IMG/VR virus record: IMGVR_UViG_3300021387_000118
Span: 77,168-141,167 of that record
Length of the DNA: 64,000 nucleotides
Reading direction: 5' to 3' (one strand)
Origin: a virus
Shown: one piece after another, positions 3,001 through 39,378 of the stretch
Layout: every line of letters starts with the position of its first letter
How positions within the stretch are numbered: the first letter of the stretch is position 1
Notes under the pieces: model-generated
Told to the model about the DNA's origin: nothing
What the model saw: only the letters and a program-made list of their open reading frames with translations
Databases searched by the model: none
Position numbers and translations under genes: made by a program

Positions 3001-5126
3001 AAAGGTGTTGTATATGAATTTTCGCCAAACTCGTCCCTTAAAAAATCATCAAAATAATCAGGTGCCATATCCTAAGATTTTATTTTTGCATCAGGATTAA
3101 TTTTGCGAATACCTTCTTTTAATATACTTTCAAAATCAAAATTATTTGTTTCTATAAGATAATCTACCAATTCTGCTCCAGCTCTTTCCGTAGATGCGAC
3201 AGATTCTTTTATTGTATTAATTAATCCACTCCACACGTCTCCTGGAGAACCGTCAGCATTAAGTTGTGTACCAATCGCGTTATTCATTTCTTGAATAACA
3301 GAAGATAAATCTTCTCCACCTTTTTTTGACATTATATTAAAACCAAGCATTCGAGAAGCATCTTTATAATCATCTCCAGATTCAGATTTATAATCCGGCA
3401 AGTATTTTATTTTCTTTCCCTTCAAAAATGACCTGATCTATAATGCAACATTGCCATCTTTAGGGTTTGCTTCATTGATAATATTAGCGTCTGTCGCAAT
3501 TAAATCTCTAAGGACTCCAATATTACTAAGTTCTCCGGTTTTTTCTGCATCTTTCATTATTCCTTCAATTTCTTCTCGTAATTGTTTGATAGTATTTTTT
3601 GTTAGATTAAACTGTTCTCCGATTTCTTTGGCTATATCAGTAGCAATATTAGAAAATTTATTACTAGAAAATGTATCCTGGATTTCCTTTATCACATCAG
3701 TTACTTCAACGCCTTCTTTTTCGAGTTGATCAAAGTATTGTTGATATCCTCCTAAAAACCCATCTAAATCTTTTTTATTATTTTTTTTACCTGTAAACCC
3801 GCCATTTTCTAGCAGCCAACTTCTCAATTCGTTGCGTTTATTATTTAGCTATTCTATTTTCTATAGTTTTTCTTTTCTATCTAATAAAGATTTTTCAAAT
3901 TCTGAATATAGAGCATCAATATCTGTTGTATCGTCTTTCAGCTTCTCTTTATATTCATCTAACCAGTCTCTCTAGCCATACTTTTCAAAATCTTCATGAG
4001 ACATAACTCTGTTAATAAAATCATCTGTTCTTTTTTGTATTTTTGCTTGTGCATCTGACTGGGCTTTTTCCATATTAGATATCATTTCATTATACGCAGA
4101 CTAAACCTACGAATCTAACATAGAGATCATGCTATCTATATTTCCCAACAACTAATTATTACTCTAAACTTTCTCGCCAAAAGTTTTGTCAAGTTGTGAT
4201 ACTCCAAGATCAGACATTTCATCTTTAAGTTCTTGCATTTTTTGTTTCGTTGCTTCAAGACCTTTTAATTGATTATCATAATATTCTTTATCCTAACCTA
4301 CGTCTACTCCTTCTCCAAGTTTTGTACCAACATCTCTTAGTAGTTGTGCAGCTTCCGATTTTACTTTTTCTAATCTATTATATATTTCTTCGTTTCTTTT
4401 TGCCAGTTGTTCTAATTCTTTGCCAGAAGCAATATCTGCTGCCACATCTGCCTCTTTTAATTCTTGTCGCTTTTTAGAACGAACTTTTTTTTCTGCAATC
4501 CCATATCTTTTTTCTACTTCTTCATTTGCTTCTGAATATGCACTCCAGTTTGGATTATTTATTTGTTTTTTTAAATATTTTCCCGTATCAACATTTTTTA
4601 CAATGTTTTCACTATCAATATAATCAAATATATCTTTAAATGCAGATTGAATTTCAAACTAAAATTTTTCGGCATATTTACTATACTAAATATAGTTTTT
4701 AACATAATCTTCCGCCTGTTTATCAGTAAGTAAACCGCCTCCAAGCGTTTTATCAGCGGCGGTCTATAATTTAGTATATAAACGTTCAATAATTTTATTC
4801 ATTCCATCTTCAAAATGAACATCATCTGGAGTAATTGTTATCTAACGTTTTTTTGAATTCATTGCTTTCTATATTGATTTATCAACTTCCTAAACATTTG
4901 ATTTGACTGGAATATCAATACCTTTCTTAGCTTCTTTCTGAAGATTTTCAATCTTTTTTTTTGATTTATCTATCTATGAATCGTCTATATTGACAGTTCC
5001 ATTTACTTCAATATCTCCACCTAATCTTGAATTAACATCATTCATAGCATTTTGAATAGCTTTCATTAGATCCTAATCTCCAGCATATCTATTACCGCCG
5101 CTTCCACTAAACTTTTTATCTGCCAT
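1..5126 (-). CDS. tail tape measure protein (5' complete, continues past window start); single frame with many in-frame TAG codons
   Basis: ORF fragments 687..878, 1371..1637, 2187..2399, 3072..3425, 3438..3827 and the ATG at 5126 all share one frame (coordinate = 0 mod 3). Junction 3425/3438 is a single TAG. Coiled-coil-rich with a 'GFNIMS...AIGTQL' region. SD AGGAGGTG lies 7 nt upstream of the ATG. Confidence 0.6.
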
Positions 5127-5226
5127 TTATTTCACCTCCTATTCATAAATTTTTTAGCGCCACAAGAAACGCATCTTCAAAAGGTTTTCTTAACATTTTT
5201 TTTTCTTCTATATATTCCTATGTTTT

Positions 5227-5742
5227 CTAATCTATATATCCATCTGGATCAGCAGCAACTAATTCTTCAAGGGGAGATGGACCTCTTGCAGCAGGGCTTT
5301 TCCAATATGTTAATTGCGGAAATGGCGTTCTCCACCATGGAGTCCCAGGCTCTGGATGTTCTGGACCATTAATGGCACCACCATGCCATCCTTTTTCAAA
5401 AGAATTAATGTATATATACTCAGCTCCAGCTTCATAACTGCCAGTCATAAATTCCGGGCCAACCTCGATTTTCCATTCATCATCATTTGCAGTAACTTTA
5501 AATGCTGAAAGCAGTCCCTCTTGTCTGCTATAAATAAAAGGACTATATGAATCATAAAATGCGGTTACCGCATTTTCTCCCATTAATTCCAAATCAAATT
5601 TTACCCTTCTATTATATTTGGCGTTTAATTTTTTGGGTATAATGTCAATAGCCGTTAAAAGATTTGATCCAGCATTAAAAAAATTCTATAACTTTACCGG
5701 GTCAACTCTTGGAATTTTTGCTTTAAATTTTTTTGTAACCAT
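5227..5742 (-). CDS. late hypothetical protein (172 codons, one in-frame TAG)
   Basis: ORF 5227..5592 extends in frame through a TAG to the ATG at 5742, with GAGGTGG as SD. Confidence 0.45.
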
Positions 5743-14149: not shown

Positions 14150-14535
14150 GTACCAGCACAATACCAAATGTTCACATGAGGTCGTTAATCTCATGCGGTT
14201 CTCTAATGAACTCCTTATTATTTCTAATAAGAGCAGACTATATCTTTCTCCAAAAATGGAGTTACCCACTTCGATACACTTGTATCTACTTCCTTACGGA
14301 ATAGTCGTTGAGGTTTATCCTATTCGGATCTTACCTGCTGATTACCCATTTATATTAATGTTTAGGATTTAACCATGCATCATCTTATAATTTTTTTCTG
14401 TTTTCACAACATTCACGTTTAGACATGTTTCATTCTTCCGTTGTAGTATTATAAGCTTTAGGGGGTTCCAGCATTTCAAGTAACACGCTGTATATAAATA
14501 CAATATGCACATTACTGTACATACGGACCATTGTG
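14150..14535 (-). ncRNA. group I intron ribozyme core (R1)
   Basis: On the minus strand the R element UCAACGACUAU (plus 14291..14301) precedes the S element AAGAUAUAGUCU (plus 14235..14246), with P7 pairing GACUAU/AUAGUC. Starts at the TAA of the upstream structural ORF. Confidence 0.6.
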
Positions 14536-15126
14536 TTAATCCACGTTAAGATTTCCGCTGAAATCAATTTCCTGAGTCTCTGCATCGAGAGAGATCGTCA
14601 TGGAAGGATCAGCTGCAAATCTCGGAATTACAACATAGCAAGGACGAAGAGAATCCTCACAGGGATCGCCCATTGCACAGAACAGAGTAAGCTTAACAAG
14701 ATCAGAACTTACAGCTGTCGTATTCTGGAGCATAGCACCAGAAGTAACATTTCTTTCCCACTTTACAAGATACTGAGTGGGAGCATTTGTATCACCTTCT
14801 GCCCTGGGAGGAAGAGTGATCTTAGTATTAGAACCAGTACCAGAAATCTTATCCTCAACAACACTAACATCAAGAGCAACATCATTTGCTCCATTGCCGA
14901 ACAAACCGATTACACGAACAGAACCATGGGTGTATTCTGCAATGTTAACTTCCGAACCAGCGGGAGCAACAACAATCTTAGGCATAATGATAGACTGTCC
15001 GCTACCAGCACCAGCATACTGAATAGCATGACCGGACTGAGCATTAATAGCCGCCGGATGAAGCAGTGCGTTCGTAGCGGTAAAGGTACCAGTCTTAGAA
15101 CGATAAGTTGTACGGATAATATTCAA
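14536..15126 (-). CDS. structural protein, probable 5' exon ahead of intron R1
   Basis: 196-aa ORF. The terminal TAA sits at the intron boundary. A stop-rich 230-nt gap separates it from a small upstream ORF. Confidence 0.45.
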   Translation of the reverse strand: MNIIRTTYRSKTGTFTATNALLHPAAINAQSGHAIQYAGAGSGQSIIMPKIVVAPAGSEVNIAEYTHGSVRVIGLFGNGANDVALDVSVVEDKISGTGSNTKITLPPRAEGDTNAPTQYLVKWERNVTSGAMLQNTTAVSSDLVKLTLFCAMGDPCEDSLRPCYVVIPRFAADPSMTISLDAETQEIDFSGNLNVD

Positions 15127-15359
15127 TATGTGTTATCACATAAACTTTTTATTTTATGTTTCTTGTGATTCTTTTTCTCACAAGTTCAGCATATATTTTC
15201 TTCTTGAGGAGGATATACAAGAAGTCGGACACTCGTGGAGATATTATTTCAATCTCTATGCGTTACACTATATGAACAGTTCGGTATTCACAATCACAGT
15301 GTTTACCGATTTTGCCCGATTATCATTTATACATCACTATATAAAGGAGCAATATTAAT

Positions 15360-15510
15360 TACCCTTCTTATCCGTAATATCAGTGGAATCAGCACTGATT
15401 TCGATCTGAGCAGAACTCAGCTAATCAAGAGCGTACTCGATATTGCCGTTCTTCTCAGCTACACCATAAAGAATTTCATCAATATAATGATTACCAAGTT
15501 TAAAAGCCAT
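15360..15510 (-). CDS. small ORF (MAFKLGNHYIDE...), possibly the N-terminal part of the same structural gene
   Basis: ATG at 15510 with AGGAGG as SD. End approximate. Confidence 0.3.
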
Positions 15511-17989: not shown

Positions 17990-18655
17990 CTATGTATAAT
18001 GTGGACAAAATGAACCGTCGCCATCAAAATAGCCAAGGACAAAAAATTTTAATAACTTGTCTGGAACACAAGTTGGAAATTCCAAAATCAAACTTTTATT
18101 TTTTACCACTCCATTTTCAGACAACTTGTCACTAATATGTTTGCTAAATATGCTCAACCTATATTGATTAGAATAATTATAACCAAAATCATGTTTATTG
18201 CTATAATCTATATATTCTAACGGTCTTTCATACTTTAATTCTTCTCGCATACGTTCTAATATATATTTATCTTGTTCTTCTAAAGATATAGTAACGGTTT
18301 GCTTTGGCGTATAATTAGACCCATCAGCATAAAGAAATCCCAATATATAAGCCTTGTTTGGTGTATCAATAACGTCAAAATAATTTTCATCTAATGAATA
18401 TTTTCTTTGCCCATTGCCAACTCTCTTAACACCATATTGATCCAGTACTTTAGCAATAACTTTATGCCCAACATTATATTGTTTACCAATATAAACTGTA
18501 GACTTTCCATTTTTATACATATCCACAATATCTTGTTTTTGTTCGTCTGAAAAATCTTTATATGTAAATATTTTACTCATATTATTCCTCCTAAAAATAA
18601 TTTGATATATAAAAACAGTAATCTTTGTATTAGGAGTACAAAGAAAGGAGGCCAA
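17990..18655 (-). CDS. LAGLIDADG homing endonuclease (double motif)
   Basis: Two motifs: LGFLYADGS and LGYFDGDGS. An N-terminal HTH. Immediately downstream of intron core R2. Confidence 0.75.
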   Translation of the reverse strand: MASFLCTPNTKITVFIYQIIFRRNNMSKIFTYKDFSDEQKQDIVDMYKNGKSTVYIGKQYNVGHKVIAKVLDQYGVKRVGNGQRKYSLDENYFDVIDTPNKAYILGFLYADGSNYTPKQTVTISLEEQDKYILERMREELKYERPLEYIDYSNKHDFGYNYSNQYRLSIFSKHISDKLSENGVVKNKSLILEFPTCVPDKLLKFFVLGYFDGDGSFCPHYT

Positions 18656-18661
18656 TCCCTG

Positions 18662-19009
18662 TCCTGTTTTTTACATTTTAATAGTTATTCTTTCTTATAT
18701 TTTCATACAAGAGCAGATCATATCAATACCATATCTTACGACTTAGGTAGTTCCCGTTACCTCACTTGAGGACATGATCGTTGAACTTTACCCTATTCGG
18801 GTCTTAGCTGCGAATTATCCAATCCAATAATTTTTTGACATTCACGCATAGTTATATTTCATACTTACGTTGTAGTATATTGGCTCTAAGGAACTCCTCG
18901 CAATTAGAGAACTTTCGACATTAACTTTCATTAATGAAGCGCACAAATTTTACGAATTCTGGCTTCTTAGTACAGCTGGACACTAATATTTACGTCCGTT
19001 AAAAATCCA
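18662..19009 (-). ncRNA. group I intron ribozyme core (R2)
   Basis: R element CAACGAUCAUG (plus 18772..18786) and S element GAUAUGAUCUGCUC (plus 18715..18724). P7 is GAUCAU/AUGAUC, covarying relative to R1. Shares 5' motifs with R1 and R3. Confidence 0.55.
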
Positions 19010-25268: not shown

Positions 25269-25555
25269 CAGCCCATCTCCGATTCGAACGGAGGTTACCT
25301 CCTTCAGAGGGATATCACGGTTTTCTTACTACATTATGTTTCCATAACAGCATCTGCTTTGTAGTCTGGATCATCTCTTCAACTCAGAGAGTTGGGAACT
25401 ATATGATCTCTGCGCATTTAAATTAGCTCAGGATTGCCATATGAATAAAATCACTTAGGGTTTTCCTGAATTAGGTTCCTTTACATTTATGTTTCACAAC
25501 ATAACGCTCCACAAATAATGAGAGACCGGTGCACTAGCCGCTGTGCTAATGGGCT
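25269..25555 (-). tRNA. intron-split amber suppressor tRNA (anticodon CUA after splicing); exons 25555..25521 and 25324..25269
   Basis: 5' exon reads AGCCCAT-UA-GCAC/AGCGGCUA/GUGC-A-CCGGU-CUCU. 3' exon reads AAA-ACCGU, a 23-nt variable arm, CUCCG-UUCGAAU-CGGAG and AUGGGCU-G. Acceptor is 7/7 complementary, with a canonical D-arm and T-arm. Splicing gives the anticodon loop CUCUAAA. Confidence 0.6.
25325..25520 (-). ncRNA. group I intron (R3, 196 nt) inside the tRNA anticodon loop
   Basis: P1 pairs exon CUCU with IGS GGAG (25510..25507), giving the U.G pair at the splice site. R element CAGAGAUCAUAU (plus 25401..25412). S element AGAUGAUCCAG (plus 25366..25376). Terminal G at 25325. Confidence 0.6.
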
Positions 25556-34740: not shown

Positions 34741-34812
34741 TTGGGATGACTGGAGTCGGACCAGCCTGATCTAGTTCCCAAAACTAGGGCCTAACCGCTA
34801 GGCTACATCCCA
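34741..34812 (-). tRNA. tRNA-Pro (anticodon UGG)
   Basis: Hand-folded cloverleaf. Acceptor UGGGAUG/CAUCCCA, D-stem GCCU/AGGC, anticodon stem CUAGU/ACUAG, loop UUUGGGA, T-stem GCUGG/CCAGU. Confidence 0.6.
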
Positions 34813-35077: not shown

Positions 35078-35350
35078 TTAAAGAACTGCTTCCTTAAATT
35101 TCTTTCCAAACTTTGCCTTTGGAACATTTTTTGAAGCAACCATCATCGTCTCACCTGTGCGAGGATTACGACATTCTCTAGCATTCTGTTCCCTTACTTC
35201 GATACTAAGACCATTAAAAAGCTGCACCTTGCCAGTATCCTTAAGCGAGTCTACGACAGTATCTTCCAAAATCATATAAAGTTCCTTCGCATCTTTCTTT
35301 GTAATATGAGCATTATTCGCAAACGCATCAATAAGTTCTTTTCTATTCAT
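35078..35350 (-). CDS. HU/IHF-family DNA-binding protein
   Basis: 90 aa with an RNPRTGE arm motif. Confidence 0.7.
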   Translation of the reverse strand: MNRKELIDAFANNAHITKKDAKELYMILEDTVVDSLKDTGKVQLFNGLSIEVREQNARECRNPRTGETMMVASKNVPKAKFGKKFKEAVL

Positions 35351-35600: not shown

Positions 35601-36527
35601 TTACGATGCTAAACCGTTTTTAAAGCAATTTAAGAACTTTTCTTTATTTGTCTTATATAAAACATTCAACATTTTTCTTGTATACTTTGTTGCGCTTTTA
35701 TATAAATACTTAGTATTTGTTTTGCCGTCTATTCCCAAAGATGTTTCGATTAATCGATAAATAGTTGCATTGCTGATCTTCATATGAGAAACACGTTGAA
35801 TAATTTCTTCAGTCTTTTCTAGCAGAGGATATATTTCCATATCATCATCGTCATGCCATAATTGAAGAAAATGTTTTACATAATTATCATATTCTTCTAC
35901 GGCCTTTCTAATTTTTCCCATCTGAGTTGCTTTAGGTGTTCCAGGTGGTTTATCTGATAAAAACGAATATGTATCAACAATGTTATCACGATCCGCACCC
36001 TGTATTTTATCTAATGCATCTTGTAACCAATTCATTGGACATATCAATTTATCATCAATCCTTCTTTGAACTTTATCTTTATCCTTTTTTATTTCAGACT
36101 GTGGACGTTCCTTCCCATTCTTTGTATAAGCAATTTTATGGGTCCATTTCATAAATTTAGGATAATCCTTTTTCCTATTCATGCATGGTTGTTGCCTTAT
36201 GCGTTGAATGTCATTGTTGACATCCACGGAATATTCGCGTTTACACCCATCGATCGCGAGCTGGGCACATACTGCCAATATCACGGTGTTTTCATAAAGT
36301 TGTTTACAGTCATTATCAATTTCACCGTTTGCAATTTTAGTCCAATAATAACTCTGACTTAATTGGGCGCTATCAGAAGATCCACCAATCGCTTTTTGAG
36401 CACCTTGCATTGCAGAGTCCATTTTCGCATAGTCAGTCATCGTATTATTATAAATGACTCCACTTTCCGGTACCTCATTGACAACAGTAGGATATTCTTT
36501 ATATGCTATTTTCGCAGACTTAACCAT
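35601..36527 (-). CDS. hypothetical protein, possible 3' exon of a split replication gene
   Basis: 308-aa ORF. Its frame is open from about 36588, immediately after intron core R4. Confidence 0.4.
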   Translation of the reverse strand: MVKSAKIAYKEYPTVVNEVPESGVIYNNTMTDYAKMDSAMQGAQKAIGGSSDSAQLSQSYYWTKIANGEIDNDCKQLYENTVILAVCAQLAIDGCKREYSVDVNNDIQRIRQQPCMNRKKDYPKFMKWTHKIAYTKNGKERPQSEIKKDKDKVQRRIDDKLICPMNWLQDALDKIQGADRDNIVDTYSFLSDKPPGTPKATQMGKIRKAVEEYDNYVKHFLQLWHDDDDMEIYPLLEKTEEIIQRVSHMKISNATIYRLIETSLGIDGKTNTKYLYKSATKYTRKMLNVLYKTNKEKFLNCFKNGLAS

Positions 36528-36539
36528 CTCTGGTTGATT

Positions 36540-36820
36540 AGTAACAAAATTAAAATCTGAATCAACATTTTCTTATATCCTGGCTCTTTATCCAGGAACT
36601 CTTCTTTTTCGAAGAGGATGAGACTATATCATGACCCTCGTTTAACGTTAGGCGAATGCTATCCTATATATAGCAGTCTTGGGATTTCGTGTCTGGATTA
36701 TTGTTTGTCTACTCACCAGTTAGTCGTTTGACCTTCTTGCTACCTCAGTGACTTTCACAAGCTTGGTTCCGAGTTTATTCATTCTCGGAATTAACCCAAT
36801 ATTTTTTGAACTGAGTTTCC
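36540..36820 (-). ncRNA. group I intron ribozyme core (R4)
   Basis: R element GUCAAACGACUAACUGG (plus 36717..36734) and S element GAUAUAGUCUC (plus 36622..36632). Begins at the UGA of the upstream 596-aa ORF. CUGAG-GAAA-CUCAG hairpin at the 5' end. Confidence 0.5.
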
Positions 36821-38611
36821 TCAGAACCGACCCTGATTATTTGAGTCCATACCATTCATACGTGCCTGAACATCTGTATGAATGCAATTTACAGCCATAA
36901 TATTGTTACTAAATTCAAAATATTTCTCCATTAGAGGATGTTTAACATTTTTAAAATATCCTAGATTATTACTACTATTGTGAGGATTACGTATACCACA
37001 CAAATATTCTCCATCACAAAATCTAGGAGTATATACTTGAATAACTCCATCATCCTGCAAAAGAGTTGGATCTTCTTCCCATGATTTCCCAACAGTATAT
37101 AATAATAAAGCATATGGATTTCCGCACACCGTCAAGTTATCACCGTGAACCGTAATTTTACCTTTACGAAGTTTTGCCACATAATCATTAATAATTTTTG
37201 ATTTATCTACTTTCCACATTTTGCTATTTTCGAAATCATTATTCCAGGCATATAAATCTGCAAGCATTTCATAGTGATTAACAGCAGTAGCATTTTTTCG
37301 TAAAAATTTTTCAAATTCATGATTGTTAGATTTTAATAAATTTACATAGTCAATACTTGTCTGAGCAATCTTATGTATATCATCAGATGTACAAGGTAGC
37401 GTGTTAATCATTTGATATGACATCTGTTGAACATCATTTAATTTTGACGGATGATCCGTTTTGACAATGCCCCATGTGCAATTATCTGCTCTGACATGAT
37501 TGCACCAATAGTCATAAGCAAGCGGCAGAGTACCACCTATAAGATCAACAAACTTTTTAAATTTGGTTGCATTATCAGTAGTAATCATTTTTATGTTCTT
37601 TGCCAAATGCCTATTGCCGTACATATCAGTAATTTCATAAGTATCATAATCTATATTATTATCTTGACAATAATCTTTGATAAACTGTTGAATACGAGTT
37701 CTAAACGCACAGGCTTTAAAAAAGTGATTTCTTAACAACGCCATACCATTGCACCAATCTGGCATAACAGTTGTTTCAATTAATGCCATTCCGTCCCATA
37801 AGGTATTCTTTACATTTGTTTCTTCTCTATGAACAGTACACCTTTTTCTTATTTCTTTTTCGCCATTTTTTAATGTTACCTCATAATCTTCGGCCCTTAC
37901 TATGTCAGCTATAGTATTGAAAAAACTATCTTTATCTTCCAGGATCAAAACATCTTCAACAGGAATGTTAATCGTTCCCTCTATCGCAGAAGTTGATAAT
38001 GGGGCATAGGCGGAAATTTCCACGATCTTTGCCCCATGATCTGGGAGAAGCTTTCCAATCCCCATAGTTAACCAGTTATATGCTTTATCATATAATTCAT
38101 CTCTAATAAACATGACACTACCTTGTTTCGCCTTAGATGGATTACGATAAAGCATCTTATAATAGATTGTTTCTTCCGTTACTTCGCCAGTTTTATTATC
38201 AACTTTATTATATGTAATATGGGTCCCTTGTTCATAAAAAATCCGGCGTATATCATCCTTTGATAGTTTCTTATATAAGTTCTTTTTAGATTTTACTTTT
38301 TCTTCCAAAGTATCAATTAATGCAAGCTGCTCCTGATTATCTTCAGCCTCTTTCCTCATTGAAGCAATATGACTTAGTTCTTCTTTGTAACTTCTCAAAC
38401 CAAATTGAAAGTCTATGCAGATAATATCTCTAGTAGACTCATCTTTTTTATCTGTTTGCATGCCATTATTTTTTAGCCAATGAGTAAATAAAGAATGGTG
38501 CAACATAGCTTCAGTATAGTCATACCTATCTCTGATGCCAGTATTTTTGCCGTAAACAGTAGCAGCTTTATAGTTTCTTATTTTCCATCCATATTGTCCT
38601 ATAGAGATCAT
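36821..38611 (-). CDS. large replication-associated protein (possible TOPRIM/primase-like), candidate 5' exon
   Basis: 596 aa with an IEG...LEDKD pattern. The UGA stop sits at the intron R4 boundary. Confidence 0.35.
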   Translation of the reverse strand: MISIGQYGWKIRNYKAATVYGKNTGIRDRYDYTEAMLHHSLFTHWLKNNGMQTDKKDESTRDIICIDFQFGLRSYKEELSHIASMRKEAEDNQEQLALIDTLEEKVKSKKNLYKKLSKDDIRRIFYEQGTHITYNKVDNKTGEVTEETIYYKMLYRNPSKAKQGSVMFIRDELYDKAYNWLTMGIGKLLPDHGAKIVEISAYAPLSTSAIEGTINIPVEDVLILEDKDSFFNTIADIVRAEDYEVTLKNGEKEIRKRCTVHREETNVKNTLWDGMALIETTVMPDWCNGMALLRNHFFKACAFRTRIQQFIKDYCQDNNIDYDTYEITDMYGNRHLAKNIKMITTDNATKFKKFVDLIGGTLPLAYDYWCNHVRADNCTWGIVKTDHPSKLNDVQQMSYQMINTLPCTSDDIHKIAQTSIDYVNLLKSNNHEFEKFLRKNATAVNHYEMLADLYAWNNDFENSKMWKVDKSKIINDYVAKLRKGKITVHGDNLTVCGNPYALLLYTVGKSWEEDPTLLQDDGVIQVYTPRFCDGEYLCGIRNPHNSSNNLGYFKNVKHPLMEKYFEFSNNIMAVNCIHTDVQARMNGMDSNNQGRF

Positions 38612-38628
38612 CTCCCATCATTATATAT

Positions 38629-39378
38629 TCATTGTTTAACATCAACAATGTTATTGCTATTGTATTTTGCCAAAGTTCCACGAACAAGACTGCGGATTAT
38701 CATATTGCTTTCTTCCGAGTTGGGAGAGTTGTAAATATTATTACAGACAATATCTGTAACGCATGAGTTAAACTCAGATGGCAACATGTTACCTTTCATC
38801 CTGTTACATGTTTTATGAGCCGGATATAAGTTGTCCATATGATTTGTTCCGCCACGACTCAACGGAATCAAGTGTTCCAATGTCCAATCTTCATCAGCAA
38901 TAGGTTTGCCGCAATAGATACACACATTGGATTTTTTTGCCACAGCACATTTTGTGACTGGACTAATTTTAATCCTTTTACTAGAATCAATATCTTCCTG
39001 AAGCTGTTTCTTAAACACTTCGGGATGTTTAAATCTTCTGAAGTTGCTATCAATCACAACTGGGTTGTCAATATTCTGAAATGAACCCCCATGTTCTTCA
39101 ATGTAATCATATGCGGCGTTAACCGTGGCGAATGTCATCGCACCTTTATAGCTAGAAGTTATTTCTCCATCTTTGCCGACAAAATACTGTTTTGTTGAAA
39201 CAACGTAACCTTTGTTCTTTGAATTACCATGTTTAAAAACCATATGGTCGGGATGGACGCTAACGTACCTTTGCGCCTCTGACTGTTTCATATGAGTAGC
39301 AGCAGAAGGACTAGTATAAAGGTTGCCGAGTCCCTGGATAAACATGATTTCATTTGATATACGATAATTGACAGCCAT
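38629..39378 (-). CDS. HNH endonuclease
   Basis: CIYCG...EHLIPLSRGGTNHMDNLYPAHKTCN motif. Confidence 0.7.
   Translation of the reverse strand: MAVNYRISNEIMFIQGLGNLYTSPSAATHMKQSEAQRYVSVHPDHMVFKHGNSKNKGYVVSTKQYFVGKDGEITSSYKGAMTFATVNAAYDYIEEHGGSFQNIDNPVVIDSNFRRFKHPEVFKKQLQEDIDSSKRIKISPVTKCAVAKKSNVCIYCGKPIADEDWTLEHLIPLSRGGTNHMDNLYPAHKTCNRMKGNMLPSEFNSCVTDIVCNNIYNSPNSEESNMIIRSLVRGTLAKYNSNNIVDVKQ

Follow-up and report, generated by a model that had tools for sequence, protein, structure and literature searches.

Group I introns that interrupt the codons of catalytic sites are classical in phages, as in td, nrdB and nrdD of T4, the DNA polymerase genes of SPO1 and Bastille, and Twort orf142, all with introns of an IA-like subgroup. 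A U.G wobble in helix P1 is obligatory for group I introns. In the RNA polymerase genes of jumbo phages, introns have been described in PhiPA3 (the gp210 intron, in the gene for a beta subunit of the multisubunit enzyme; PMC11620839) and in gp273/274 of 201phi2-1 (PMC2919709). Group I introns in catalytic codons of phage enzymes, RNA polymerase subunits included, are already well known, so a further one is not surprising in kind. Here we analyzed a 64,000-nucleotide (nt) stretch of viral DNA (positions 77,168 to 141,167 of IMG/VR record IMGVR_UViG_3300021387_000118; hereafter, the window), in which two open reading frames (ORFs) of 596 and 308 amino acids (aa), separated by a 293-nt spacer, are very probably the exons of a single 910-aa RNA polymerase gene split by a 278-nt group I intron (Table 1). 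The host gene resembles yonO of Bacillus phage SPbeta, which encodes a single-chain two-barrel DNA-dependent RNA polymerase (PMC5467207), and the literature that could be searched contains no description of an intron in such a gene.

The intron resembles those of T4 td and other phage genes in its size without an ORF (~260–280 nt), its P3/P7 pseudoknot core with the P7 strands GACUA/UAGUC, the extra helix between P7 and P3', the U.G at the 5' site, the terminal G, the in-frame stop soon after the 5' site, and its insertion in codons of a catalytic motif; as in those systems, HNH genes are found in a peripheral loop, here in its relatives. It differs from them in its YonO-like host gene, the absence of P5, an extra hairpin in P8, the presence of one identified helix rather than P7.1 plus P7.2, and in being missed by the Rfam model RF00028. 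With PhiPA3 and 201phi2-1 it shares the placement of a mobile group I intron in a phage RNA polymerase gene beside conserved catalytic aspartates. Those genes encode beta-like subunits of multisubunit enzymes, in which the beta-type barrel has an invariant Asp and two Lys (Rpb2 D837, K979 and K987; PMC2919709), and are associated with an active HNH endonuclease, whereas the window gene would encode a single-chain enzyme, is split in the beta'-type DxDxD loop and has no endonuclease.

We could demonstrate the homology and colinearity of the exons together with the boundaries and the fold of the intron. A search of 5.8 billion proteins with the fused product yielded 2,704 matches, and, as would be expected if one gene of roughly 900 aa were split, the possibility raised at first pass, more than 95 were uninterrupted homologs of ~905 aa, dozens of them covering 99–100% of the fused product at 70–76% identity. 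The junction was read directly in ten full-length homologs and in a 26-sequence alignment; all have ...RMNG(E/M/C)D(F/E)DSDF..VTNQ... without an indel (...RMNG(E/M)DFDSDFNFVTNQP... across the junction), and residues R541, P543, N586, G587, D589, D591 and D593 are invariant in the alignment. Exon 1 is colinear with the homologs up to ...RMNG(E/M)D, and phrog_8308 matches residues 106–907 of the fused product as one stretch (E = 3e-93). Three genes found with tblastn in phage records are likewise uninterrupted at the junction (RLSGADFDSD, RLNGCDYDSD and AMNGCDFDGD). Among the 120 best protein matches, 18 are truncations of 570–615 aa that end just after NG(E/M)D, and these are intron-bearing alleles. 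Uninterrupted genes predominate in the IMG/VR loci encoding relatives (77 of 80), the other three having an ORF-containing intron at a site farther downstream. The homologs come from phage contigs of ~100–200 kb, with human faeces as the source of the closest public records.

The 5' splice site lies after U36844 and the 3' splice site after G36566. In P1, the guide segment GGUC (36832..36829), 11 nt downstream, pairs with GACU at the end of exon 1 (36847..36844), with U36844.G36832 as the wobble, and in P10 the adjoining AAUCAG (36838..36833) forms six base pairs with UUGAUU at the start of exon 2 (36565..36560). The wobble at the 5' splice site is kept in all ten members of the intron family. 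Compensatory changes in P1 follow the exon (GAUU/GAUC in L014 and GGGU/GCCC in L002; L numbers denote other sequence records and loci), and P10 shows one in L010 (UUGACU/AGUCAG) and is weak in L014 and L007. Splicing in silico gives ...AAU GGU AUG GAC U-UU GAU UCA GAU... (the hyphen marks the junction), which translates to ...RMNGMD-F-DSDFNFVTNQPEMVK... and restores the DxDxD motif (...RMNGMD-F-DSDFNFV...). The predicted mRNA junction is ...AUGGACU-UUGAUUCAG..., with the junction 30-mer GAATGGTATGGACTTTGATTCAGATTTTAA, and the predicted junction-spanning peptide is MNGMDFDSDFNFVTNQPEMVK. A 5' site after GGU (36851), and 3' sites at G36563 or other Gs, were rejected by reasoning because they need an intron that does not end in G or break or shorten NGxDFDSD. 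The first-pass annotation correctly placed the UGA of the 596-aa ORF outside the mature mRNA and put cleavage after its U (36823), 21 nt downstream of the site identified here; the stop lies inside the 5' strand of P2 and is therefore intronic and spliced out in the model, although the splice site itself lies elsewhere. The reading frame of exon 2, which had been taken to be open from about 36588, is open only from 36572, as a UAA occupies 36575..36573.

A covariance model built from eight related introns in other contigs, with the window copy excluded, matches the window from end to end (model positions 1–274, 208.6 bits, E = 1e-65), and the limits of the match are identical to those that follow from the protein. 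RNAalifold on the eight relatives recovers P2, P3, P4, P5, P6, P7.1, P8, P9 and P9.1, and P7 was added to that structure as a pseudoknot. In the alignment of the relatives, 97.3% of the cells are standard pairs and both partners vary in 31 of the 56 pairs; none of 500 shuffled controls reached any of the measures, and sliding the 3' partners by 1–3 columns lowers pairing to 30–46%. Inclusion of the window copy gives 98.7% pairing, with compensatory changes in 32 of 51 pairs. All 13 helices of the window copy itself consist of standard pairs, and paired changes relative to its relatives are seen in P3 (AUCGG/CCGAU to UUGGG/CCCAA) and P4 (UGCGG/CCGCA to CCGAG/CUCGG), while P7 is invariant in the family (GACUA/UAGUC). 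One covarying 4-bp helix and a conserved loop of ~19 nt lie between P7 and P3'; a second helix, which the IA2 criterion of P7.1 plus P7.2 would include, was not identified there. A near-identical intron copy in another contig of 154 kb has five differences, all in loops or changing C-G to U.G. The hairpin and the R-like and S-like elements seen at first pass are all present, but the hairpin is P2, which covaries in the relatives as a hairpin of its own and is neither the start of the core nor P1.

Same-site introns of L005, L006, L009, L011 and L013 score 65.7–101.9 bits with RF00028 (gathering score, 50 bits), so the family is group I by a curated criterion and the window copy is a divergent member of it. 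There is no ORF within the 278-nt intron and no endonuclease ORF in the spacer, in agreement with the first-pass annotation. By megablast, none of 50,697 phage records matched the region, and blastn with the intron gave only ~85-nt matches (73–76% identity) at unannotated sites of phages of Flavobacterium and C. perfringens, which are probably other group I cores.

The protein had been guessed to be a replication protein of a primase or helicase family. Pfam searches revealed nothing meaningful in either half, in the fused product or in 26 homologs, a PDB sequence-profile search gave no matches, and no primase, helicase or other replication structures were among the fold matches. The fold was modelled with AlphaFold2 for P0002, an uninterrupted homolog with 75% identity that stands in for the window product (predicted local distance difference test score 86.7, predicted template modelling (TM) score 0.80). 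In a Foldseek search of the PDB, QDE-1 and RDR2, which are cellular RNA-dependent RNA polymerases, account for all of the 20 best matches (E = 2e-13 to 5e-8, TM ~0.45–0.5 over ~1,000 columns), and the match in BFVD was 'RNA dependent RNA polymerase [Podoviridae sp.]' (E = 1e-49, TM 0.78). The fold also matches the two-barrel RNA polymerases phi14:2 gp66 (crAss-like) and P23-45 gp96; at the sequence level, all of these are only 9–13% identical to the window-family polymerase. Alignment of the family profile with SPbeta YonO by hhalign (E = 9e-6, 385 columns) pairs GIRNPHNS with ILRSPHLF and DFDSD with the catalytic DNDGD. YonO and the window protein thus share the aligned R-x-P-H and Asp triad, a similar size (839 versus 910 aa) and an HU-like gene downstream, but their similarity is marginal, with no BLAST match, and the SPbeta record annotates yonO as a single gene of 839 aa without interruption. 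The Asp triad of YonO is essential, triad mutants being inactive (PMC5467207). In the window, R-x-P and the invariant triad are present, the triad being complete only after the proposed splicing. The fold matches of P0002, the YonO profile alignment and the HU-like gene downstream together point to a YonO-like, single-chain two-barrel RNA polymerase with the QDE-1/RDR2/crAss gp66 fold, and not to a primase or helicase. Annotators of related phages name the protein 'RNA-dependent RNA polymerase', probably as a naming carry-over.

Ten loci with truncated ORFs were retrieved for comparison, and in silico splicing yields NGxDFDSD for each. At the same site as in the window, five of them have introns of 262–281 nt that contain no ORF. 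L010 and L014 have introns of 880 and 913 nt with HNH genes in the P5 loop (HNH_3 plus NUMOD4 and HNH_3, respectively), and the introns of L002 and L007 carry ORFs too. Two further insertion sites flank that of the window: a 724-nt intron in MT837385 (L002) lies 6 nt upstream, after NG plus 1 nt, and a 1,183-nt intron in L007/L008 lies 6 nt downstream, after DFD plus 1 nt. The exon word and guide are GGGU/GCCC at the first site and GACU/GGUC at both the window site and that of L007. Separate genes with a conserved stop, which would have spoken for two proteins, were not what the relatives showed, as their ORFs extend past the 5' intron boundary by 0 to 28 codons and the position of the stop is not conserved. 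In ~1 Mb of flanks, the family model matched nothing elsewhere at E ≤ 0.001. L002 (MT837385.1) is the closest homolog in the annotated collection, and a second group I intron was observed in its polymerase gene at 5121..5447 (Rfam, 77.2 bits at 5163..5412), between the counterparts of residues 665 and 691. The intron ORF of L007 seems, by eye, to start GIY-YIG-like at ~4400..4520 and to be broken by an in-frame stop; this endonuclease gene may be decaying. In L075 (5001..8042), a polymerase homolog of 50% identity has ~336 extra in-frame bases, which the intron model does not match and which probably encode an insertion in the protein instead of forming an intron.

Table 1 Coordinates of the proposed gene model, the intron helices and other features (window numbering unless a locus is named)
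Feature	Position	Strand	Remarks
596-aa ORF	36821..38611	-	3' end ...GGU CGG UUC UGA, as in the first-pass annotation
308-aa ORF	35601..36527	-	
Exon 1, predicted RNA polymerase gene	36844..38611	-	codons 1-589 and U36844 (base 1 of codon F590); 3' end ...AAU GGU AUG GAC U
Group I intron	36566..36843	-	278 nt, ORF-less; 5' end CAAAUAAUCAGGGUC, 3' end ...AAGAAAAUG, terminal G36566
Exon 2	35601..36565	-	last two bases of F590, then DSDFNFVTNQPE, 308 residues (annotated as separate ORF), stop
DxDxD motif codons, intron-split	36555..36847	-	D589 GAC 36847..36845; F590 U36844 and UU 36565..36564
DxDxD motif codons downstream of intron		-	D591 36563..36561; S592 36560..36558; D593 36557..36555
Internal guide sequence	36829..36838	-	5'-AAUCAG-GGUC-3' (P10 and P1 segments)
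P2	36811..36824	-	hairpin CUGAG-GAAA-CUCAG; holds UGA stop 36823..36821; 4 of 5 pairs with compensatory changes in relatives
P3	36799..36795 / 36683..36679	-	UUGGG/CCCAA; domain 36679..36799 encloses P4, P6, P6a, P7 5' strand and P7.1
P4	36789..36784 / 36773..36768	-	capped by 10-nt A-rich loop, without P5
P6	36767..36765 / 36733..36731	-	
P6a	36761..36757 / 36740..36736	-	
P7 5' strand	36725..36721	-	within R-like element GGUCAAACGACUAAC, 36717..36734
P7 3' strand	36626..36622	-	UAGUC; within S-like element GAUAUAGUC, 36622..36632
P7.1	36719..36716 / 36696..36693	-	
P8	36678..36676 and 36652..36650 / 36638..36633	-	in 3' domain 36579..36678
Extra hairpin inserted in P8	36675..36670 / 36662..36657	-	
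P9	36616..36611 / 36604..36599	-	
P9.1	36596..36592 / 36583..36579	-	
Three insertion sites 6 nt apart	L002 4164..4887; window 36566..36843; L007 4266..5448		last site also in L021, L022 and L067
HU-like gene	35078..35350	-	directly downstream of polymerase gene
HNH protein gene	38629..39378	-	249 aa; 17 nt upstream of polymerase gene
tRNA gene	34741..34812	-	Rfam 51.1 bits; between HU-like and PhoH-like genes
Other group I-like match	14183..14548	-	family model
Other group I-like match	15124..15361	-	family model
Other group I-like match	18674..18882	-	family model
Other group I-like match	25332..25521	-	family model

In the pre-mRNA, the guide would pair with GACU of exon 1, the U.G wobble marking the 5' splice site, which an external guanosine bound at P7 would attack. 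The guide would then hold UUGAUU of exon 2 via P10, and the free 3'-OH of exon 1 would attack after the terminal G36566, the ligation rebuilding the three-aspartate metal-binding loop (...NGMDFDSD...). Translation of unspliced mRNA would end at the UGA in P2 and give a 596-aa fragment with the first aspartate only. Since that fragment has one of the three aspartates and the other two lie after the UAA and before any start codon, an active polymerase would need splicing. In the simplest reading, the window copy would be a derivative that lost its endonuclease gene together with P5.

If the intron started after U36823 of the UGA and its core opened with the CUGAG/CUCAG hairpin, splicing would also remove the stop, and in L014 a stop codon does form across the splice site (GAU U-GA). 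Exon 1 would then end ...GGUCGGUUCU in the mRNA, and ...QGRF would be joined to exon 2 (...GGTCGGTTCT-exon 2). This would insert the seven residues SNNQGRF after the first Asp of DxDxD, as in no uninterrupted homolog, and turn the guide GGUC into exon sequence; U36823 pairs with an A in P2 and so provides no U.G wobble of P1, the codons from 36843 to 36821 show no in-frame conservation across the relatives, and the independent covariance model starts the intron at 36843. We consider this placement of the boundary extremely improbable. It is nearly as hard to credit that nothing is spliced and that the 596-aa and 308-aa proteins are subunits of a split polymerase, like the beta/beta' subunits of jumbo phages, with the spacer a dead intron relic. 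Split RNA polymerase subunits do exist in phiKZ-like phages (PMC2919709), and gene callers annotate two ORFs here, but the break would lie within the metal-binding loop, and D591, D593 and the next 12 conserved residues, being located after the UAA and upstream of the first ATG of the 308-aa ORF, would never be translated, an arrangement to be set against the inactivity of triad-mutated YonO (PMC5467207). The spacer, moreover, retains a full covarying ribozyme fold.

Several points weigh against the spliced 910-aa gene. The window copy has no P5, of which the relatives have 3 bp, and has the additional P8 hairpin, so its catalytic competence is not guaranteed. RF00028 gave no match to it at the gathering score, nor at E ≤ 10 on the 3.4-kb region, so independent support for the intron was needed at this locus; the group I covariance scan proposed at first pass thus failed with the Rfam model and succeeded, end to end, with the family model. 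The missing P5 and the extra hairpin probably explain the Rfam miss. The minimum free energy z-score of the intron is only -1.94, which is uninformative by itself, and splicing is predicted from sequence rather than observed. For the product, the sequence link to YonO is weak (hhalign probability 83%), and DNA-dependent RNA synthesis is suggested by analogy with YonO and crAss gp66, on which the template specificity would rest. The lost P5, the P8 insertion and the Rfam result would also suit an intron that is real by descent and no longer splices, leaving a pseudogene in this phage. Against this, neither exon is disrupted anywhere in the 910 codons, the product is 75% identical to uninterrupted homologs, and it retains every invariant residue; the pairings of P1, P3, P4, P6, P7, P8, P9 and P10 are kept, several by copy-specific paired changes, and other large contigs also have this copy, altered only in loops or wobble pairs. 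A pseudogene therefore seems improbable, if slightly less so than the other two alternatives, and a split gene reunited by splicing is the reading that we strongly favor.

The HU-like gene directly downstream is 36% identical to SPbeta YonN (L098 15835..16113; E = 1e-16), and yonN is directly downstream of yonO; phages of this family share an SPbeta-like module. A YonV_C domain gene was observed nearby in one relative. The HNH gene upstream occupies the corresponding place in close relatives whether or not they have the intron, and is very divergent (27–79% identity). Its association with the ORF-less intron, as a trans-acting homing endonuclease, was rejected, as HNH homologs are also upstream in five of the six intron-less close relatives examined (L016–L020, not L015) and the intron-bearing L014 has no HNH gene there. 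L009 and L011 have transfer RNAs (tRNAs) at the same place as the window tRNA. Elsewhere in the window, Rfam Intron_gpI matches 14214..14548 (53.4 bits), the other group I-like matches to the family model score 48.1, 22.9, 19.9 and 17.2 bits, and the window may hold four or five introns. The ORF at 17990..18655 on the minus strand has a weak LAGLIDADG_3 match.

The Rfam group I model overlooks a reduced, P5-less variant, which is easily recovered with a model made for the family. The DxDxD-coding motif, GAY-UUY-GAY-UCN-GAY-UU, repeats GAYU every 6 nt, and this repeat together with the guide-matched exon words suggests that the intron may have changed sites by reverse splicing. That it did move between sites by guide-directed reverse splicing and not by endonuclease homing, and that splicing also gates the timing of polymerase synthesis, is a tentative proposal that we rate as rather unlikely. 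The three staggered sites with matching guides offer a compact natural system for site change by group I introns. For the phage family, the analysis assigns a predicted function to more than 2,700 homologs, which have no Pfam family and a PHROG of unknown function, and for the window it corrects the gene model, in that two annotated 'hypothetical proteins' very probably become one 910-aa RNA polymerase, the active site of which would be formed only by splicing.

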